This document shows, one piece after another, positions 46,206 to 57,697 of a stretch of 61,894 nt of DNA (its first letter is position 1; each line of letters opens with the position of its first letter). Origin of the DNA: Planctomycetota bacterium (lineage in GTDB: Bacteria > Planctomycetota > UBA8108 > SXIK01); NCBI GenBank assembly GCA_016209535.1, contig JACQVW010000404.1:1-61894 (forward strand), in the 5' to 3' direction. Below the pieces are notes generated by a model. The model did no database searches and was not told where the DNA came from. It worked only from the letters and a program-made list of their open reading frames with translations. Made by a program: the position numbers and the translations under genes.

Positions 46206-46313
46206 AGGGCCGGTGGGCCGGTAAGGGGCCAGGGTGGGCCGCGCGCCGTCGAAGGAACGATCATCGATTACAATCCCTCGCGAGTATCTTCACCAAGGTA
46301 CGGGACGCCTGGG

Positions 46314-46329
46314 AGGCACTGCATTTGCA
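46314..46329 (+). promoter_or_regulatory. sigma-54 (-24/-12) type promoter aGGCAC-N5-TTGCA
   Basis: GG 46315-46316 and GC 46327-46328 with the canonical 12-nt offset, 46 nt upstream of ATG 46375. Confidence 0.5.
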
Positions 46330-46374
46330 GCGGAGCCTCGGCTCGTCCCCCACGAAAAAGGAAAACGGTGCACC

Positions 46375-47973
46375 ATGGAGCGACCAGTCCCCATGCCGGC
46401 GGCTGGCTCAAGAACGATTCGCAGCGCCTCGACCCTCCTCGTCCTGGGGCTCGCCTTGGGCGCGACGGTTCTCTGCTCGAGCCCCGGAGGGGAGGACGTG
46501 CCTGGCAAGGGGCCCGAGAAGCCCAAGCAGTACAAGCAATCTGGCGACTGGCGCGACGGCGGCTCGGGCTACCTCCGCCAGAGCCCTCCCGCGGTCGCCG
46601 TCGGCCGCTCCCCCCTCGACTACGGCCTCGGGGAGCACCACGCCTCGAAGCTTCCGGCCTATCCGCCCGGGATCGAAGGCGACCGCACGCCCTTCGACCT
46701 CTGGCGCTACGCGGGCCGCGGGAGGAGCTCCTGGGGCGCGCCCGTGCTGCCCGTGCCCCTGGAGGAATGGATCGCGAGGCACCGCGAGCAGAAGCCCAAG
46801 CTCATGGCCGACGTGCGGGCAACCATGGCGAGCCGCTATGACTTCTCGGGGAGGACCATCGCCCGAGCGACCATGTCGGGCGGCAAGCCCATCATGAAGG
46901 GCCCCGTCGCCAGGCTGCCGAAGGGCGTGGAGTCGTTCGAGGCCCTCGCAGCCCTGTCGCCAGACGAGGTCCTGCGGCGCGACCTCTTCCCGTACAAGCC
47001 CCTCGCCCACCCGCTGCAGACGACCGCCCACATGGTCTTCCCCGACATGTGGGTCAAGGCGCACCCCGAGCACGAGCGGATCGACGTGGACCTCGACATC
47101 CCCGACGCCTACCTGCCCGAGTTTCCGCCCCCGATGTTCCTCACGACCCACAAGGAGCTCGGCGACGTGACGGGGGGCGTCGAGGTGACGCTCGGGAACT
47201 ACTACGACATGTTCAACGGGCTCCTGACCGCGGAGCAGATGGAGGGCCTGAAGGAGCTCCTGCGGCCTTCGCCCACGACCTGGTTCAACCACACCGAGCA
47301 CCGCGTCACGGCCGAGCCGAGCGCCGGGGTAGCTTGCCTCTCGTGCCACGTGAACGGCCATACGAACGGCGCGATCGAGCTGGCGCCCGACTCGCGGCCC
47401 AACCAGGCGCGCCTCCGCGTGGACACGCCGAGCATGCGCGGGAACTACAACTCGATGCAGCTCTCGAGCAAGCGTTCGATCCGCAGCATGGACCACTTCG
47501 CGGAGGTGGAGGAGTACTTCGATGGGGACCCGGGCCTCATGCAGGCCATCGGCCCGCGCTCGCAGCAGAAGCAGGTCACGAACCGGATGGGGGACTTCAA
47601 CGCGATCCTCGACTTCCCGCCGGCTCCGAAGCTCGGCCCCTTGATGAGGCTCAAGCCATCGATATCGACGCCGGCCGAGCTGCGCGGCGAGCAGGTCTTC
47701 CACGGGAAGGGCCAGTGCGTGAAGTGTCACTCGGGCCCGGCCTTCACCGACGACTACATGCACGACCTCCAGGTGGAGCGGTTCTACGCGGGCCGCCCCG
47801 AGGGTCCGATCAAGACCTTCGCGCTTCGCGGGATCAAAGACTCCCCGCCCTACCTCCACGACGGCCGCTGCCCGACGCTCCACGACTCGGTGGAGCTCTT
47901 CAACCTCGTGCTGGAGCTCGGGCTGACCCGGGAGGAGAAGGAGGACCTCGTCGCGTTCCTGCTCTGCCTCTGA
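46375..47973 (+). CDS. di-haem cytochrome c peroxidase-like (CCP/MauG superfamily) secreted protein
   Basis: 532 aa from ATG 46375. Signal or lipoprotein-like N-terminus. Two CxxCH motifs (CLSCH, CVKCH). C-terminal PPYLHDG motif. Confidence 0.75.
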   Translation: MERPVPMPAAGSRTIRSASTLLVLGLALGATVLCSSPGGEDVPGKGPEKPKQYKQSGDWRDGGSGYLRQSPPAVAVGRSPLDYGLGEHHASKLPAYPPGIEGDRTPFDLWRYAGRGRSSWGAPVLPVPLEEWIARHREQKPKLMADVRATMASRYDFSGRTIARATMSGGKPIMKGPVARLPKGVESFEALAALSPDEVLRRDLFPYKPLAHPLQTTAHMVFPDMWVKAHPEHERIDVDLDIPDAYLPEFPPPMFLTTHKELGDVTGGVEVTLGNYYDMFNGLLTAEQMEGLKELLRPSPTTWFNHTEHRVTAEPSAGVACLSCHVNGHTNGAIELAPDSRPNQARLRVDTPSMRGNYNSMQLSSKRSIRSMDHFAEVEEYFDGDPGLMQAIGPRSQQKQVTNRMGDFNAILDFPPAPKLGPLMRLKPSISTPAELRGEQVFHGKGQCVKCHSGPAFTDDYMHDLQVERFYAGRPEGPIKTFALRGIKDSPPYLHDGRCPTLHDSVELFNLVLELGLTREEKEDLVAFLLCL

Positions 47974-48673
47974 CGAGCCTGTCTCTGACGAGCCTCTTTG
48001 CGATCTCCGGCCAGCAGCGCTCCCTCGAGAGGAAGGCCGCGCCGAGCCCCGCGGCCGCGAGGGCGGAAGGCTCGAGGCACCGGATGCCGAGGGACTCGAA
48101 CGTGGCCGCGAGGTCCGGGTCGCCGGGGCCATCGGCGATGAGGAACGACTCGAGGCCGTTCTCCCCGTAGGCGAGGACGTCGCCCGGCTTGTCGCCGATC
48201 CCGCGCTCGATCCGGAGCCCGCGGTCCCGGAGGGCCCGGATCGCCGCGGACTTGAGCTCGGCCCGGGCGCGCTCCGTGAAGAGGAGCCGCCGCGAGAAGA
48301 CGACGGGCATCGGCGGGAAGCCGTTCGCCGCGAGCCAGCCCACCGTGCGCCCCGCGAAGGAGTCGTCCCGCGCCGTGAGGAGCACCAGGTCCCAGCGCTC
48401 CGCGAGCGCGCGGAGCGCCTCCGGAGCGCCCGCGAAGGGCGCCATGCGGGCCGGCGCGAGGCCGCAGGCGAGGCGCAGGCTGCTCCACGCGCCGCCGTCG
48501 ACGAGGGTGTCGTCGATGTCGACGACCAGGGCGGGCCGGCAGCGCGAGGGGTCGGCGTAGAGGCCGAGCAGGTCCTCCCGCTCGGCATGCCAGGCGGGCG
48601 GTCCCGAGGCGCACCCGCAGGCGGCGAGGGCGAGGAGTGCCATGACGGCTCGGAGAAAGCGTGCCGGTCTCAC
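47900..48673 (-). CDS. HAD-superfamily phosphatase-like lipoprotein
   Basis: Lipobox LAACGC. DxDxT motif VVDIDDTLV, LLTARDD, GDKPGD. GTGA overlap with the upstream gene. The 3' tail overlaps the convergent gene by 74 nt. Confidence 0.6.
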   Translation of the reverse strand: MRPARFLRAVMALLALAACGCASGPPAWHAEREDLLGLYADPSRCRPALVVDIDDTLVDGGAWSSLRLACGLAPARMAPFAGAPEALRALAERWDLVLLTARDDSFAGRTVGWLAANGFPPMPVVFSRRLLFTERARAELKSAAIRALRDRGLRIERGIGDKPGDVLAYGENGLESFLIADGPGDPDLAATFESLGIRCLEPSALAAAGLGAAFLSRERCWPEIAKRLVRDRLVRGRAGTRRGPPSPPGSARAPARG

Positions 48674-49665
48674 CGTGCCTCCGCGTCCTCGATGGCGTCA
48701 GGAGCCTCGAGCACACCGGCGCGCTCGAGGGCCTCGAGGGCCCGCCGCGCCCGCCGGTCGCCCGGGACATGGTCCAGGGCGGCCCGGAGGTGCTCGGCGG
48801 CGGACTCGCGGTCTCCGGCGAGGGCTCGGGCGACCCCCAGGTTGTAGTGGGCCCCGGCCGCCTCGCGCGCCCGTGGCTCGGCGAGGGCGCCCGCGTCCAT
48901 GTCCTTGAGGAGCGCCGAGCGAAGGTCCGGCGCCGCGGCGCGGAGGTCGGGGTCGTAGCGGCCCGTGAGGAGGACGGACCGGATGCACTGCTCGAGCTCG
49001 CGCACGTTCCCCGGCCAGGGGTAGCGGGCCGGGAGGCATCCCTCCATCGCCTCGCGCACCCGGCCCGCGACCTCGGCGGACTCGGTCCCGGTCACGCGCC
49101 GCAGCACGTGGGCGACGAGCTCATCGAGCTCGCCCGGGTCCTCGGCGAGGCGCTGGCGGAGGGGCGGGACCGTGATCGTGTCGGAGCAGAGCCTGTAGAA
49201 GAAGTCGTCGCGGAAGGTGCCTCTCCGCCGCAGCTCCTCCAGGGTCGCGTTCGTGGCGGCCACCACGCGGCCCTGGAAGCGCCTCGTCTCGTGGCTCCCG
49301 ACGGGCGAGAAGACGCGGTCCTGGAGGACCTGGAGCAGCTTGATCTGCACGGGCGCGGAGACCTCTCCGATCTCGTCGAGGAAGATCGCGCCGTGGGGGC
49401 TCGACAGGGTGAGGACGCCCTCGTGGTCCTCGACGGCGCCGGTGAAGGCCCCCTTCCTGTGGCCGAAGAGCTCGCTCTCGATGAGTCCCTCGGGGAACTG
49501 GGAGAGGTTGATCGCGACGAAGGCGCCGGCGAAGCTCTCGGCGAAGCGGCCCTTGCGCTCGTCGAAGGGGATGAACCCCGACCTCCCGATGGCGGCGGCC
49601 GCCGTCCCCTTGCCCGTCCCCGTCTCGCCCAGGAGGAGCGTCGAGAACTCCTCCATGCGGTCCAT
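48670..49665 (-). CDS. sigma-54 interaction (AAA+) domain protein with a C-terminal TPR-like tail; no receiver/sensor domain and no HTH
   Basis: Walker A GETGTGKG, GAFTGA loop, Walker B IFLDEIGE, R-finger region, WPGNVRELE. An in-frame TGA lies 11 codons upstream of the ATG, so the N-terminus is short. Confidence 0.8.
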   Translation of the reverse strand: MDRMEEFSTLLLGETGTGKGTAAAAIGRSGFIPFDERKGRFAESFAGAFVAINLSQFPEGLIESELFGHRKGAFTGAVEDHEGVLTLSSPHGAIFLDEIGEVSAPVQIKLLQVLQDRVFSPVGSHETRRFQGRVVAATNATLEELRRRGTFRDDFFYRLCSDTITVPPLRQRLAEDPGELDELVAHVLRRVTGTESAEVAGRVREAMEGCLPARYPWPGNVRELEQCIRSVLLTGRYDPDLRAAAPDLRSALLKDMDAGALAEPRAREAAGAHYNLGVARALAGDRESAAEHLRAALDHVPGDRRARRALEALERAGVLEAPDAIEDAEAR

Positions 49666-49787
49666 GAGGAAGCGGACGTACCAGCGGATAAGGTTGCGTC
49701 AGCGCCCTATGACCACCCGACTCTTGAAAACCTGAAGCGCTTTCCTATACACCAAAGGAGTCTCAGAGGGATCATGCACCAAGTGGG

Positions 49788-50402
49788 TTAGGACTCACTT
49801 GCCTTTCCTCGCAACAAACGCCACCAAGATAGTAAGGAAGACAATATCGCACACATCCACTCAAGAAAGGCATTTGTCTCTCCAATCAAATCTATCACAA
49901 GCTCGAATACCGGAACATGATAATCCGCTTTTGTGGTTAATGCTCCTGGTAAACGCTCCTTAAGGCTTGGAACTATCACACACGCAACGGATATCACCAT
50001 AAGCCCAACATTGCCACACAGAATAGCCAAATTGAGGTGTCTATTACCAATTCCCATTACTCGATTATGCTCTAACCACTCCTGCGCCTTTTCTCGGTAA
50101 AAAGTCTCTGCCCAACGTCGCTTTCCTACTCCACGCATCCAGCGACGCCAATTCCAAGCAAGGAATGGAAGAAAAGCCCACGAAACAGCCCATAGTTCGT
50201 GAAAGTGCTCAAGCACCTCCGCCCCTCGTCCACGCAGCACACCCATAACAGCAACACAACATGCAAACAAAAGACATACGCAGTATGGAACCACCGCACC
50301 CGTTAGATAAGATCCAACCTTGCCCAGCTTATCCAAAGCAAAAAACAAAAGGAACGCTGGGACTCCTACAATGAAAAAGGCCAACAACTCAACTATATCC
50401 AT
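49788..50402 (-). CDS. orphan polytopic membrane protein encoded in a low-GC (about 44%) island
   Basis: 204 aa with 4-5 hydrophobic helices and AT-rich third codon positions. It is the only long ORF in this segment. No recognisable family. Confidence 0.6.
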   Translation of the reverse strand: MDIVELLAFFIVGVPAFLLFFALDKLGKVGSYLTGAVVPYCVCLLFACCVAVMGVLRGRGAEVLEHFHELWAVSWAFLPFLAWNWRRWMRGVGKRRWAETFYREKAQEWLEHNRVMGIGNRHLNLAILCGNVGLMVISVACVIVPSLKERLPGALTTKADYHVPVFELVIDLIGETNAFLEWMCAILSSLLSWWRLLRGKASES

Positions 50403-50409
50403 CTGCCAC

Positions 50410-50778
50410 CTAGGCCCGCACCCCGGGCTCGTCTTCCTGGCCTTGGCCCGCGAGATAGACCCTGTCCTCCGGCCCAGGAGGCCAGCACGGCCGCGTTCGC
50501 GCGAGGTCCTGCTTCAGCTCCTCCAGCGCCTGCAGCACAGCCGTGCACGAAGGATCGCCTTCCTGGGCAAAGGCGCACGGGTCCCGTCCGCGATCGAAGA
50601 GCCATTGCAGCAGGAAGATCGGGTCGGCGATGTTGATCCTTCCGTCGCAGTTCACGTCGCCGTTCCGGGTGGCCAGCGGACCGCCGCCGGCACGGACGCC
50701 GACCGGAACGCCGAGGAAGGCGACGGTGATGACGACGCCGGCAAAGGCGGAGATGAGGACGGTGATGAGCTTCCTCAT
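50410..50778 (-). CDS. small anchored or secreted protein with a single dockerin-like half-module
   Basis: 122 aa from ATG 50778 (AAAGGGGAAG upstream). N-terminal TM or signal sequence. GDVNCDGRINIADPIFLLQWLF. Confidence 0.55.
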   Translation of the reverse strand: MRKLITVLISAFAGVVITVAFLGVPVGVRAGGGPLATRNGDVNCDGRINIADPIFLLQWLFDRGRDPCAFAQEGDPSCTAVLQALEELKQDLARTRPCWPPGPEDRVYLAGQGQEDEPGVRA

Positions 50779-51050: not shown

Positions 51051-51296
51051 ATGCCAACCGTGAGCACAACCAAGGTCCGCGAGGAGCTCTCGGAGACCTT
51101 GAACCGTGTCGCCTACGCCGGAGAGCGGATCATCCTTGGCCGGCGCGGCAAGGCCATCGCCGCTCTGGTCCCGGTAGAGGACCTCGAGATTCTCGAGGCC
51201 CTTGAGGATCGTCTGGATGTCGAAGCCGCCAAGAAAGCCCTCAAGGAGAAAGGCAGTATCCCCTGGACCAAGCTCAAGAAGAAGCTCGGACTCTAG
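51051..51296 (+). CDS. Phd/YefM-family type II antitoxin
   Basis: 81 aa. VSTTKVREELSETLNRVAYAGERIILGRRGKAIAALVPVEDLE is a typical Phd/YefM fold sequence. AAGGAGG lies upstream. Confidence 0.85.
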   Translation: MPTVSTTKVREELSETLNRVAYAGERIILGRRGKAIAALVPVEDLEILEALEDRLDVEAAKKALKEKGSIPWTKLKKKLGL

Positions 51297-51302
51297 CACG
51301 CC

Positions 51303-51566
51303 GTGGCCTACACGATCGACGTAAGGCCCAAGGCGGCCCGGCAGCTTGAGGCCCTGCCGCCGAGGATTCAACGTCAGGTCGCCGCCCGGATCGACAGCCT
51401 GGCCGTGGACCCGAGGCCCCCAGGATCGAAGAAGCTCAAGGGCGTAGAGGAGCTGTACCGCCTCCGGTCCGGCGACTACCGCATCATCTATCAGGTCCAG
51501 GACAAGAGGCTCCTCGTGCTCGTGCTGCGGATCGCCGACCGCAAGGACGTCTACTGGGATCTTTGA
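51303..51566 (+). CDS. RelE/ParE-family type II toxin
   Basis: 87 aa. YRLRSGDYRIIYQVQDKRLLVLVLRIADRKDVY is the characteristic C-terminal RelE/ParE motif. GTG start 7 nt after the antitoxin stop. Confidence 0.85.
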   Translation: MAYTIDVRPKAARQLEALPPRIQRQVAARIDSLAVDPRPPGSKKLKGVEELYRLRSGDYRIIYQVQDKRLLVLVLRIADRKDVYWDL

Positions 51567-51717: not shown

Positions 51718-51764
51718 TGGCGCGCCCGGAGGGACTCGAACCCCCGACCCTCTGCTTAGAAGCG
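51718..51764 (-). other. tRNA-Arg(UCU) 3'-half remnant (anticodon loop to CCA); probable att core of the adjacent integrated element
   Basis: The minus strand reads CTTCTAA-GCAGA-GGGTC-GGGGG-TTCGAGT-CCCTC-CGGGCGC-G-CCA. No matching acceptor 5' strand or D arm lies upstream, so it is not an intact tRNA. Confidence 0.5.
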
Positions 51765-51846
51765 AGATCCTCAGGCGCTCTGCCGCGCGAAGTTGCAGAA
51801 ATCCCTTGTATTTAAGGAGAAACTAGGAGACACTAAAAGACAGCCA

Positions 51847-51868
51847 GGTTGCAACGAAGGTTGCAACG
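51847..51868. promoter_or_regulatory. tandem palindromic sites GGTTGCAACG-AA-GGTTGCAACG (candidate integrase/Xis arm-type or repressor sites)
   Basis: Read directly in the low-GC spacer between the tRNA remnant and int. Related GTTGCA copies occur at 51634-51639, 51793-51798 and 56949-56955. Confidence 0.4.
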
Positions 51869-51962: not shown

Positions 51963-53345
51963 ATGCCGAGGGCGAAGCGCAACCGATCCCACATGTGGAG
52001 TGTCGAGGGCAAGCCCTGGATCTACCGCCGTCCGTTTCTCGCCCGAGGGAAGTGGCGAGTGCGAAGGCGGAGCAGGCTCGTGGAGGGACGGCTCGAGATG
52101 ATCACCCTGGCGAGCAAGAACCTCACCGACGCCAAGCGCGACGTCGAGGAGATGGCCCGCAAGGAGCGCAAGGCGGCCGAGGAGGCCGAGGCGAACGGCG
52201 GGCCCATCGAGCCCAAGAATGCCACGGTCCGCGAGGCGCTCGACGAGTGGCTGGCCGTCATGCGCGCCAAGAGCGAGCTGCGCGAGCGCTCGGCCGTGAA
52301 CTACGAGAAGACGATCCCGCTCTACGCCCGCATGCTCACCCCCGATCGCCTCGTCGCCTCGCTCGAGTACGGCGACGTGGAGCGGCTCTTCACCGAGCAG
52401 TGGGATGACCCTGAAACGCCCAGGGGCCACAAGAGCCGCCTGGGCTGGAAGAACGCCTCCGGGCGGACGCGCATCATGCACCGCGGCGCGCTTGTCCGCT
52501 GGCTCGCCTGGTGCAGGAAGAAGGGGTACACCAGGGCGAACCCCGCCGAGGCGTTCGAGATCCCGGCGAGCTGGCAGAAGGAGGCGACCCGGGCGACCCG
52601 CGAGACCGGGCAAGCACTCAGCCCGGACGAGATGCGCAGGTTTCTCCGCGCCTGCGAGGATCCCTACCTCGTCGACTTCACTCCGAGGACCCGGAGCGGC
52701 AAGAGGCTTGCGCCCGCCTCGACGACGCCGAGCGAGGTTCGGCCGCCCGGGTGGCTCCACCCGTTCGTTTTCTTGAGCCTGCGAACGGGGCTGCGCGTCT
52801 CGAACCTCCTCGGCTCCCCGCACAAGCCGCCCCTGCGCTGGTCCAACCTCGATCTGGAGAAGGGTGTTGTACGCATCAGAGCCGAGCACATGAAAAACGA
52901 CAGCATGTTCGGCGCGCCGCTCCACCGAGAGGTTGTGGAGTACCTCCGGCGGCTCCGCGGGGACCGGATCCCGGCGCCCGAGGATGCCGTGATCCCCGGC
53001 ATGACACGGGAGGTCGACCGGCCGTTCCACGCCGTGCTCCGGCGCGCCGGGCTCGAGGAGCCCGTCACTGGGAACTTCCTCGGCGAGCTGCGCGACCAGG
53101 ACAATCCCCACGCCTTCCGCGTCCACGATCTGCGCCACAGCGCCCTCAGCCTCATGGGGGCCAGCCTCCCCGAGTTCGTCGTCGCGCGGCTCGCGGGCCA
53201 CGCCGGCGGGAGCATCACACGGAAGTATGCTGGCAAGATCCCGATAGATGAGCTGCGCCGCCACCTCGACGCGCTCCCGCCGCTCCTCGAGGAGCCCGGC
53301 GGCGACGAGCACCCGTCGAAAAGACTTGCCTGCCAGACAGGGTGA
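51963..53345 (+). CDS. tyrosine-type site-specific integrase
   Basis: 460 aa. AAGGAGA upstream. Catalytic-domain motifs LRTGLRVSNL (Arg), HDLRHSALSL (H-x-x-R), LAGHAGGSITRKY (His...Tyr). Confidence 0.9.
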   Translation: MPRAKRNRSHMWSVEGKPWIYRRPFLARGKWRVRRRSRLVEGRLEMITLASKNLTDAKRDVEEMARKERKAAEEAEANGGPIEPKNATVREALDEWLAVMRAKSELRERSAVNYEKTIPLYARMLTPDRLVASLEYGDVERLFTEQWDDPETPRGHKSRLGWKNASGRTRIMHRGALVRWLAWCRKKGYTRANPAEAFEIPASWQKEATRATRETGQALSPDEMRRFLRACEDPYLVDFTPRTRSGKRLAPASTTPSEVRPPGWLHPFVFLSLRTGLRVSNLLGSPHKPPLRWSNLDLEKGVVRIRAEHMKNDSMFGAPLHREVVEYLRRLRGDRIPAPEDAVIPGMTREVDRPFHAVLRRAGLEEPVTGNFLGELRDQDNPHAFRVHDLRHSALSLMGASLPEFVVARLAGHAGGSITRKYAGKIPIDELRRHLDALPPLLEEPGGDEHPSKRLACQTG

Positions 53346-53515: not shown

Positions 53516-53803
53516 ATGGGAGTCCCTCTCATGTTCGCTCCTCTCCTCTCCCGCGACGAGCCCACCGTCGGCGACGTGCTCAACACGGAGGACATCTGCG
53601 CCCTCTTCGGTATCACGAAGCGCACTCTTAGCCGCTGGGTAGCGCGCCCGAGAAATCCCCTGCCCGTGTCCCGCCCCGGGGGCCGGCGCGCGTACATCCC
53701 GCGGGCCAGGTTGCTCGCCTGGCTCGCCACGCTCGAGGAGCGTGGGCCCTCGCCGCCGCCTCGCCGGGCACGAAAGGCCGCGTGCGTGGGGCGCAGCGCA
53801 TGA
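53516..53803 (+). CDS. excisionase / AlpA-like helix-turn-helix DNA-binding protein
   Basis: VLNTEDICALFGITKRTLSRWV followed by RRAYIPRARLLAWL is the typical Xis-type wHTH pattern. Lies next to int. Confidence 0.6.
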   Translation: MGVPLMFAPLLSRDEPTVGDVLNTEDICALFGITKRTLSRWVARPRNPLPVSRPGGRRAYIPRARLLAWLATLEERGPSPPPRRARKAACVGRSA

Positions 53804-54960: not shown

Positions 54961-56499
54961 ATGATGAAAGACAACCTACTGCACAATGAGTCGGGGCGCA
55001 ACGGCGGGAGCGAAGGGATTCCGCCGAGCGAGGCCCGGCTTCTTCGAAGGCTCTCCTGCCGCCGGCTCGAGGTCCACGACTCGGTGTTGTGGATAGATGC
55101 CCTCGGGGAGCGCAGGTATGGCGTCGTCCTCGAGGTCCAGGGCGACGAGACCCTCCGTATCCACGTCGAGACCGGCCGGACCGACAAGGAGTGGCTGGAC
55201 CCGGCGATCGTTGCTTCCCCCGGCTCGCCGAAGAGGCGAGAGGGATCCTCCGGCCCGACGCCGGTGTGGAACCTCTGCGACACCGAAGATGAGAGACTTG
55301 AGACCCTCGCCGGGCGAATCCACGAGGTGAACGCCACCGTCGCCCCGCCGCGCGCGCTCGTCGACGAGGGTCGCACGGCGTGCCCCCTGAGGCCTCTCTG
55401 CCGCGCCTCGCAGCCTGCGGCGCTCGGCGGCTCGGAGCACGCCACGCCGCGCACAGCGTTCAACCTCGGGTGGATCGACGGGATCGCTGTGATCCCCGAG
55501 GGCATGCGGAACGACAGCGTATTCCGCCTCCTCGCCGCATGCCGCGCCCGCGGCGCGGACGATGACCTCCTCGCGGAAGTCGCCGGCGAGATCAACGAGG
55601 CGCGCTGCGCCCCCCCCCTCGCCGCGCGCGAGCGCGACGGGATCGTACGGTCCGTCCGGCGCAACACCGTCGGGCCCAGCCGGACCCGGCCCGACCCCGG
55701 CGCGGCCGAACGCGCCCGGGCGCAGGAGGTCCTCAACGCCTGGATCGACGCCGTCTCGCCGGGCCTCGGCCGCCGATTCTGCCCCGACCGCCGCGCTCTG
55801 CACCTCGAGCACGCCAAGACCGGCGCCGGCCACGGCATGTTCCTCGACTGCGGCCGCCACAGTTGCGACTGCTGCGGGGCCAAGGCCCGCGCCATCGCCG
55901 CCTGGACCTTCGTCGAGAGCGCCCGCAACGTGAAGCTCTACGCATGGATCGTCCCCGCGGCCCGCTGGCCCGCACTCCGGCGCCGCCTCCGGAAGCTGGA
56001 GAAGGAGCAGGGCATCGCCTTCGCGGGTGCGGTCCTCCGAGGCGGCGACATCCGCGTCTACGCGTCCGCGCGCCTCGCACCCGAGGCCGTGGCCGTCCAG
56101 GACCGCCGCGAGGCTGCCTTGGCATTCGCTCGGGAAGCCGACCTAAGCCGCCCCCGGCGGTCGCCCTGGCTCCTCTGCTCGAGCTGGCGAGCCCGTCGCC
56201 GCGCGATCCTCGAGACGCTCCGCTACCCACGGAACGAGGACCTCCGGCTCGTCGCTATCGGCGCCGCGCCGTCCCACGCCGCCCTCCACGAGGCCGCGAC
56301 AGCCCTCGGCGTCGAAGTAACCACCCAGGCCGACGGCTACCGCGTTCGGCTCCGCCAGGGCGTCACGCATGAGACCTGGTGCCGGGCCATCGGGCTGAAA
56401 GTCGTGCGGTCGTTTCTACCTTCGCTCGCACCGAAGGTGGAAACGACGTGCCGCATGGCCGCGCACCTCTCCACCGGCCCGCCAGGCCAGGGGCCATGA
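54961..56499 (+). CDS. replication-associated protein with a PriCT-1-like (primase C-terminal) motif
   Basis: 512 aa. IPEGMRNDSVFRLLAACRARG...INEARCAPPLAARERDGIVRSV resembles the PriCT_1 pattern RN..LF..A..L....N......PL...E...I..S. Confidence 0.5.
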   Translation: MMKDNLLHNESGRNGGSEGIPPSEARLLRRLSCRRLEVHDSVLWIDALGERRYGVVLEVQGDETLRIHVETGRTDKEWLDPAIVASPGSPKRREGSSGPTPVWNLCDTEDERLETLAGRIHEVNATVAPPRALVDEGRTACPLRPLCRASQPAALGGSEHATPRTAFNLGWIDGIAVIPEGMRNDSVFRLLAACRARGADDDLLAEVAGEINEARCAPPLAARERDGIVRSVRRNTVGPSRTRPDPGAAERARAQEVLNAWIDAVSPGLGRRFCPDRRALHLEHAKTGAGHGMFLDCGRHSCDCCGAKARAIAAWTFVESARNVKLYAWIVPAARWPALRRRLRKLEKEQGIAFAGAVLRGGDIRVYASARLAPEAVAVQDRREAALAFAREADLSRPRRSPWLLCSSWRARRRAILETLRYPRNEDLRLVAIGAAPSHAALHEAATALGVEVTTQADGYRVRLRQGVTHETWCRAIGLKVVRSFLPSLAPKVETTCRMAAHLSTGPPGQGP

Positions 56500-56938: not shown

Positions 56939-57697
56939 ATGGAAGTCGTTGCAACCTGCGTTGAAACCTCGCCCGTAACGGCAACCGGACAGGACGCGGT
57001 GCGAGAGCGCACGCGGGCAACCGCCAGGACACGTGCCCGTCGTGCGAGGACCCGCGCCCTGGAGCGGGCGTGGCGCGGTCGGGCGGCTCCATGTACCCCT
57101 GGGCTCGCGTGCCCGTACCGCGAGGTCGCTTACTTGGTCTCCACGACGGAACACCCCGACGGGATCTGCGCGGATGCGGCTCCGGCCCGGCCTTGCTGCT
57201 GGGAGAGAAAAGTCTGGCAGACGGCTTACGAGGCGGCCTGTCAGGTCTGGTCGCCCGGAACGGCGGTCCTCGTCGCGAACCTTCACGCGACGATCACCCG
57301 CCGGGAGGTTCGCGGCCAGGACGCGACGCCGGAGAAGCTTCAGCTCCTCAAAGTCCAGGTTGAGAGTGAGGACCGAAGGGCGCGCCTCGACTTCGATCGT
57401 CAGCGCTTTCAGGAGCGACAGCGTGAGCTTGATGCGCGGCGTCGAGACGGCCCCGACCTTTTGAGTGCCTTGCTGGCCGCGCCGTGCGCCCCGGCCCTAC
57501 CCCCTGGCGCGATCCTCCACGCCGTCGCGCCGGACGCCCCCGGGGCGAACGGGGCGCGTGCCGGCGCCTCTCCCGTGACGACCCCGCCCGCTGCGTCCTC
57601 CGCCCCTCCCCCGGACGCTGCGGTGCCCTCGACGACCCCGGCCGAGGCGGCGGCCGGGGAGGCGGCGCCGGGCCTCTCCTCGGGAGGTACCCCATGA
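56939..57697 (+). CDS. hypothetical protein (Arg-rich N-terminus, coiled-coil centre, Pro/Ala-rich tail)
   Basis: Internal ATG of the 335-aa track ORF, immediately after the promoter. No recognisable family. Confidence 0.35.
   Translation: MEVVATCVETSPVTATGQDAVRERTRATARTRARRARTRALERAWRGRAAPCTPGLACPYREVAYLVSTTEHPDGICADAAPARPCCWERKVWQTAYEAACQVWSPGTAVLVANLHATITRREVRGQDATPEKLQLLKVQVESEDRRARLDFDRQRFQERQRELDARRRDGPDLLSALLAAPCAPALPPGAILHAVAPDAPGANGARAGASPVTTPPAASSAPPPDAAVPSTTPAEAAAGEAAPGLSSGGTP

Follow-up and report, generated by a model that had tools for sequence, protein, structure and literature searches.

The question raised by this locus is how a short stretch of DNA with a low guanine-plus-cytosine (GC) content came to lie in a high-GC genome, and whether the open reading frame (ORF) on it is a real gene. 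The locus is found on contig JACQVW010000404.1 of a Planctomycetota bacterium (GCA_016209535.1), and the whole stretch of DNA that was analyzed, 61,894 nucleotides (nt), is called the window in the following. The original prediction described a razor-sharp low-GC island of 0.7 kb encoding an orphan membrane protein of 204 amino acids (aa), and interpreted it as cargo of a neighbouring prophage. As a whole, its observation was confirmed and its interpretation was partly supported. The island probably carries an ORFan that does encode a protein and that was imported in place of the 5' part of a sigma-54 activator gene.

Composition and edges of the low-GC island

A three-segment maximum-likelihood GC segmentation placed the island at 49688-50404 with 47.3% GC, compared with 70.4% for the whole window. 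Sliding windows of 700 bp had a mean of 70.3% GC (standard deviation, SD, 3.6%), and the minimum of 47.4%, in the window starting at 49701, lay at -6.3 SD. The island was the sole case of this kind, and elsewhere in the 62-kb contig no 300-bp stretch fell below 57% GC. Both analyses established the sharp low-GC island as real, with a contrast to the contig of about 23 points and two sharp edges. The GC skew of the + strand within the island was -0.29, compared with 0.005 +/- 0.06 for the window (-5 SD), and was the strongest in the window. Since GC content, GC content at third codon positions (GC3), codon usage and strand skew all deviated, the segment is compositionally foreign.

Both breakpoints could be placed within a few bases, and the left one was resolved to the base. 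The left edge, between 49689 and 49690, is the exact base where the similarity to RtcR/NtrC-type sigma-54 activators ends, at the DNA as well as the protein level. Because the DNA identity to the L081 orthologue of the activator begins exactly there, at ATC (49689-49687), and nothing similar was found past it, this edge is a true breakpoint. The in-frame TGA (49701-49699) that had been placed near the left boundary, 11 codons upstream of the first ATG of the activator, was read in the sequence as described. At the right edge, the GC step and the ATG of the ORF (50402-50400) coincide within about 3 nt. The upstream gene is a 122-aa ORFan, and 7 nt separate its stop codon from the ATG, in agreement with what had been predicted for this boundary.

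The motif AAGGTTGC is located exactly at the left edge (49690-49697), and its only other occurrence in the window lies within the motif AGGTTGCAACG at 51857. This recurrence was not significant, with 2 matches compared with 0.58 expected and at least 2 in 12% of shuffles.

Coding character of the ORF and predicted protein

The ORF occupies 86% of the island. Its GC contents at the first, second and third codon positions were 0.56, 0.42 and 0.43, respectively, and the GC3 values of the neighbouring genes ranged from 0.79 to 0.96. An index of the codon adaptation index (CAI) type, calculated with ten native genes as reference, was 0.185 for the ORF and 0.57-0.83 for native genes. The GC and codon-usage plots proposed with the original prediction thus placed the island and the ORF far outside the native range. 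A stop-free run of 204 codons arose in just 0.16% of 5000 shuffles of the island. Ten TGG, five CGA and one CAG codons, each one transition short of a stop codon, are intact in the frame. Taken with the GC3, the CAI-like index and the shuffles, the claim of a foreign coding sequence with AT-rich third positions was upheld.

The coding strand of the island is poor in C (G 30%, T 32%, A 20% and C 17%), and the third positions of the ORF contain only 11% C and 23% A. Codons ending in a pyrimidine nearly all end in T, while the two-fold codons ending in a purine stay with G (AAG 6:1, GAG 11:2). This extreme C-poor coding strand may reflect a strand asymmetry in the donor. When a donor was sought by synonymous codon choice, no sampled genome beat a uniform model for the ORF.

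The encoded protein is hydrophobic, with a grand average of hydropathy (GRAVY) of +0.57, and rich in Trp (10 residues), Cys (7 residues), Phe, Leu and Val, while only one Gln is present; its hydrophobic, Trp/Cys-rich character had been correctly described. Five favourable 19-residue transmembrane (TM) segments were obtained with the Wimley-White scale (residues 3-21, 38-56, 70-88, 125-143 and 179-197), in line with the five TM segments originally proposed, but the Kyte-Doolittle scale strongly supported only three of them. The number of five is therefore a prediction and not a result. Basic residues cluster in the loop 24-32, in the loop 86-122 (+10/-4) and at the C-terminus. Because they sit in alternate loops and at the C-terminus, a five-TM, N-out/C-in layout following the positive-inside rule is predicted.

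Searches for relatives

No relative of the 204-aa protein was found in any library or collection searched, and its description as an orphan was thus borne out. Profile searches against Pfam (E<=10), PADLOC and NCBIfam gave no match, nor did PHROGs, where the best E-value was 0.18. A word search over 5.8 billion protein clusters returned no relative and no self-hit either, and an exhaustive phmmer search against 1.84 billion representatives was likewise without a relative. In a six-frame DNA search of JGI metagenome contigs and IMG/VR, no relative of the ORF was present. Nothing matching the ORF or the island was detected among phage and plasmid records (tblastn and blastn) or E. coli genomes (blastn), and contamination by phiX, vectors or E. 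coli is excluded because these searches were empty. A sequence search of the PDB gave nothing for the protein, and Foldseek against the PDB with an AlphaFold2 model gave a best E-value of 1.9, which is unusable. The remote-homology and structure searches recommended with the original prediction have thus led to no family. The same prediction had also considered that homologues might occur as conserved core genes at this position. Since no homologue was found in the searches made, such a status of the ORF appears to be excluded.

The sigma-54 activator remnant

The ORF of the activator extends from 48670 to 49665, with its first ATG at 49665. It contains the sigma-54 interaction AAA+ domain PF00158 (6.4e-43, profile positions 22-165), and the PADLOC model RtcR_PspF2 (CARF-AAA-HTH) matched it at 9e-63 over model positions 190-417. 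Homologues of the activator are about 495 aa long, the best being 75% identical. According to tblastn and alignment, 49689-48883 corresponds to residues 181-449 of these homologues. The N-terminal sensor region (about 180 codons) and the C-terminal helix-turn-helix (HTH) are both absent, and the missing N-terminal residues, about 180, were found nowhere in the whole window. Because both regions are missing, the activator is an internal remnant truncated at both ends and not merely cut at its N-terminus. The truncation by the island edge had been recognized before; the loss of the HTH had not.

The 213 nt that follow the remnant in frame (48670-48882) are a high-GC tail unlike the HTH region of the homologues, and they mark a second, older breakpoint. 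The last 4 nt of this tail overlap the beginning of a gene encoding a HAD/LNS2-like lipoprotein (47900-48673). The remnant has the AAA+ domain expected of a bacterial enhancer-binding protein, and it lacks the sensor domain and the HTH expected of one. The contig carrying the best homologue of the activator was not syntenic with the window.

Proposed origin and expression

Our account of how the island was inserted, how its ORF is expressed and what kind of function it has is inferred. An illegitimate, non-site-specific recombination would most likely have replaced the DNA from the stop codon of the 122-aa gene to about codon 181 of the activator, and the sensor domain of the activator would have been removed in the same step. 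On the best reading, the import of the island was recent. The event would have taken place in a mosaic, decaying zone that had undergone several rearrangements and that abuts an element carrying integrase, excisionase and primase genes. The case would then show an acquisition that destroyed a sigma-54 activator.

A sequence AGGTGG (5/6 matches to AGGAGG) overlaps the TAG stop codon of the upstream gene and lies 3 nt before the ATG of the ORF. This arrangement may permit translational coupling. Because the GC edge lies near the ATG and AGGTGG overlaps the upstream stop codon, expression by read-through and translational coupling is suggested. Transcription would probably start in the divergent promoter region at 50.8-51.05 kb and yield a two-gene transcript with the ORF in second place. 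It would be translated by coupling to the 122-aa gene, without a promoter or terminator of its own, and selection would have kept the arrangement that permits its expression.

Several observations weigh against an imported and expressed gene. The third-position GC skew of the ORF (+0.49) exceeded those of all 305 comparison ORFs, each 200 aa or longer and drawn from retrieved loci with 38-56% GC, and no explanation for it was found. As no homologue was found, there is no conservation-based evidence of selection on the ORF. The single-sequence AlphaFold2 model was all-helical and, with a predicted local distance difference test (pLDDT) score of 46.7, unusable. No sigma-70-like promoter site for the ORF was detected in a consensus scan, which did not cover other promoter types. 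No terminator was found 3' of the ORF, and the single terminator-like site (50299-50278) lies inside it and is within shuffle expectation. Random illegitimate recombination would account for a GC edge that matches the ATG to about 3 nt only if selection for expression is assumed as well. No sister genome was present among the collections, the best identities of flanking genes were 75-78%, and the respective loci were not syntenic. In addition, the source annotation called both neighbours (self-hits P0001 and P0121) and not the 204-aa ORF. As the annotation missed this ORF, relatives in similarly atypical islands could be absent from protein libraries. An intact gene of 204 codons missed in this way indicates that protein-only databases may under-represent genes of atypical composition.

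Alternative explanations

The island might be a dead foreign scrap, imported but neither expressed nor selected, whose ORF is open only because it arrived recently. It is surrounded by remnants, namely the activator cut at both ends and a tRNA-like remnant, and the absence of a promoter or terminator of its own, the uncalled ORF and the lack of homologues would fit such a scrap. However, the ORF fills most of the island and starts 7 nt past the upstream stop codon with a Shine-Dalgarno-like motif in front, the predicted five-segment layout is coherent, and a frame of this length is rarely open in shuffles. We therefore regard a dead scrap as unlikely. The functional interpretation given with the original prediction, in which the integrative element next to the island brought the ORF as cargo and its membrane protein serves in abortive infection, superinfection exclusion or immunity, seems a little less likely still. 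Its favourable context consists of the Phd/ParE pair, the tRNA-like remnant and the integrase/excisionase/primase module nearby, together with a small polytopic protein type that is also found in known exclusion and immunity proteins. PADLOC, PHROGs, Pfam, NCBIfam, PDB sequences and Foldseek, however, contributed nothing in favour of such cargo, and no relatives occurred among phage or IMG/VR sequences. The placement of the island inside a prophage was not supported: the integrase module is found across the tRNA-like remnant from the island, and the contig contains no second copy of an attachment site (att), so that either side of the remnant may be the inside of an element. With 47% GC compared with about 69-73% in the integrase module, the island is also not ordinary cargo of that element. 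An assembly chimera or contaminant, in which the assembler joined a 0.7-kb piece of another organism to the contig, would account for the razor-sharp GC steps, for the contig being a singleton in the collection searched and for the failure to find an independent copy of either junction. But it would require two joins 715 bp apart without any repeat shared by the island and its flanks, one at a stop-codon/ATG junction and one within a gene that has lost a part not found in the rest of the contig. With phiX, other phages, plasmids, vectors and E. coli all unmatched, a chimera is very unlikely.

A local transition hypermutation, by which strand-biased C-to-T deamination turned native high-GC DNA AT-rich, for instance the 5' part that the activator has lost, was suggested by the base mix of the coding strand. 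T greatly exceeds C in codons ending in a pyrimidine, G is kept in two-fold codons ending in a purine, there is a single Gln, and the third-position GC skew lies outside all comparison ORFs; such a process would also yield a pseudo-protein rich in Trp, Cys, Phe and Leu. The alignments, however, disagreed with it. With purines and pyrimidines collapsed, the island aligned to the 5' region of the orthologue with a score of 27.5, compared with 29.4 +/- 3.3 for shuffles and 405 for the conserved core as positive control. A collapsed-alphabet scan of the remaining window gave nothing above shuffles and no paralogue. In an anchored codon test with six full-length homologues, 38/170 codons of the island were revertible to a residue present in a homologue when only C-to-T was allowed and 53/170 when both transitions were allowed, the off-register backgrounds being 38.2 +/- 4.8 and 51.9 +/- 5.4 and the control 160/170. 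By the collapsed alignment to the orthologue and the anchored codon test, the 5' part of the activator was rejected as hypermutated parent of the island. Ten TGG and five CGA codons moreover survive, and the 23% A at third positions is not producible by C-to-T changes on one strand, which leaves hypermutation with very little probability. The least probable origin of all is a site-specific or transposable unit, namely an integron cassette, a miniature inverted-repeat transposable element (MITE) or insertion sequence (IS), or a group II intron. A promoterless ORF at the boundary, a 3' tail of about 100 nt and the sequence TCCTAAC, which overlaps the stop codon and comes close to RYYYAAC, the R'' core of attC, would agree with it. 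But the tail (49690-49787) has no R' core (GTTRRRY), and its fold was not unusual (z = -0.19), with no stable or palindromic hairpin. The island carries none of the hallmarks of a mobile element: there are no terminal inverted repeats, no flanking direct repeats or target duplication, no match to an Rfam family and no match to a transposase family.

The function of the ORF is not readable from its sequence, and nothing found supports or excludes a role in defence or immunity. The likeliest class, which is a guess and a doubtful one, would be an accessory protein of the membrane that stems from a mobile element or phage, for example one acting in exclusion, immunity or envelope modification. 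A bolder proposal, to which we give only a slight chance, takes the ORF as the first member of a polytopic membrane protein family not described before, with a protective function such as phage exclusion or toxin immunity. It would have been delivered as a promoterless single gene and set precisely behind a host stop codon, through a mechanism without any known att, attC or terminal-inverted-repeat signature. If so, the C-poor strand would point to an asymmetrically replicating donor, for example a single-stranded DNA or rolling-circle element.

Comparison with known systems

Single-gene islands have been termed genomic islets. The deviant composition and codon usage, the lack of a homologue in the searches and the tRNA-like remnant and integrase nearby were all found here as in such islets, whereas flanking direct repeats (att) were not found at the island. 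Phage morons, known from the work of Hendrix and colleagues, are extra single genes of deviant composition between prophage genes; each is located within the prophage and comes with a promoter and a terminator of its own. The island resembles a moron in being an insertion of one gene with a composition unlike that of its neighbours. It differs from a moron since no promoter or terminator of its own was found and since it is bordered by a regulator remnant and an ORFan instead of phage genes.

Small polytopic exclusion and immunity proteins include RexB of lambda, SieA of P22, Imm of T4 and the immunity proteins of pore-forming colicins. The 204-aa protein is similar to them in general type only, namely in size (roughly 100-250 aa), in several predicted TM helices, in a family-poor sequence and in association with mobile DNA. 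Unlike these proteins, it is known from sequence alone, and it has neither sequence or profile similarity to them nor a partner gene. The island is also similar to an integron gene cassette in its promoterless ORF starting near the boundary and its tail of about 100 nt past the stop codon, but it differs in the absence of attC (no R' core and no bulged hairpin) and of an IntI/attI context.

AT-rich ORFans are usually imported and not born in place (PMC3514957; PMC13012023). In E. coli, short, AT-rich and taxonomically restricted ORFans were acquired horizontally (PMC3514957; PMC13012023). The present ORF agrees with these E. coli ORFans in being short and far AT-richer than its host, in having no homologue even in phage databases, in adjoining an integration hotspot and in the unassigned function of the gene. 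It differs from them in the unusually large contrast (47% compared with 70% GC) and the unusually sharp edges of the island, in the direct fusion behind the stop codon of a host gene, and in that no pangenome exists for presence or absence. It adds a further case, if a remarkably clean one, to the imported ORFans, represents a known kind of acquisition and carries little weight alone. Given sister genomes or reads, it would be a tidy case for the dating and mechanism of single-gene acquisition in a high-GC lineage.

Neighbouring genes and features

The features of the locus are listed in Table 1. From the activator remnant onwards, the order in the zone is island, 122-aa ORFan, Phd/ParE pair and tRNA-like remnant, followed by the abutting integrase/excisionase/primase element.

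Table 1. Features identified at the low-GC island and in its flanks. Positions are those of the window; a dot in the strand column stands for a feature given without strand.
Feature	Position	Strand	Basis or remark
High-GC tail of the activator frame, unlike the HTH region of homologues	48670..48882	-	Alignment to homologues
RtcR/NtrC-type sigma-54 activator, internal remnant, AAA+ core only	48883..49689	-	PF00158, PADLOC, alignment to homologues
Low-GC island	49690..50404	.	GC segmentation; left breakpoint set by homology
Low-GC non-coding tail, 98 nt, 3' of the ORF	49690..49787	-	No terminator, no attC-like cores, ordinary fold
ORFan, 204 aa, five predicted TM segments	49788..50402	-	ORF call, hydropathy
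Junction: TAG stop (50412-50410), 7-nt spacer, ATG	50403..50412	-	Direct sequence reading
122-aa ORFan gene, hydrophobic N-terminal segment, several Cys	50410..50778	-	GC3 0.84, native-like
Phd/YefM antitoxin	51051-51296	+	Profile match
ParE toxin	51303-51566	+	Profile match
tRNA-like remnant	51721..51778	-	24.8 bits, under the gathering score of 29 (Rfam)
Tyrosine integrase	51963..53345	+	Profile match
HTH_17 excisionase-like gene	53516-53803	+	Profile match; downstream of integrase
Sigma-like gene	Same module, after the excisionase-like gene		Profile match
PriCT_1 primase-like gene	54961-56499		Profile match

The 122-aa gene upstream of the ORF gave only its self-hit in the collection of 5.8 billion clusters. 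It had been called dockerin-like, which could not be maintained: Dockerin_1 (PF00404) matched a motif of 13 residues at E=0.21 and 12.3 bits, below the Pfam cut-off of 22.9 bits.

The toxin-antitoxin pair and the integrase were both present near the island, as had been stated, but their distances have to be corrected. Counted from the right island edge, the Phd gene lies at 0.65 kb, the tRNA-like remnant at 1.3 kb and the integrase gene at 1.56 kb, and the tRNA-like remnant separates the island from the integrase, excisionase-like and primase genes. In this remnant the 7-bp acceptor stem is perfect and the T arm is present, as is an encoded CCA, whereas the anticodon arm (UCU) is degenerate and the D arm is absent. 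No tRNA was called at 51721-51778 by ARAGORN. The remnant differs from a simple 3' att fragment.

The tyrosine integrase gene and the three genes listed after it in Table 1 form an integrative-element module. No relative of the integrase was present in IMG/VR.

On the other side of the activator remnant, a gene on the + strand (46234-47973) encodes a 579-aa protein similar to MauG and di-haem peroxidases. Both the conservation and the wide distribution of this gene are unusual: its product is 65-78% identical among Planctomycetota, Verrucomicrobiota, Bacteroidota, Myxococcota and other groups. Among 80 genome loci around homologues of this protein, none shared the other neighbouring genes of the window.

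The motif AGGTTGCAACG occurs as two tandem copies at 51846-51868 on the + strand and again at 56947-56969 on the - strand, the two sites being inverted and 5.1 kb apart. A total of 4 matches were found compared with 0.4 expected, a number reached by no shuffle. All four genes of the integrase module lie between the two sites, and the copies may be binding sites of a recombinase or regulator, or the ends of the element.

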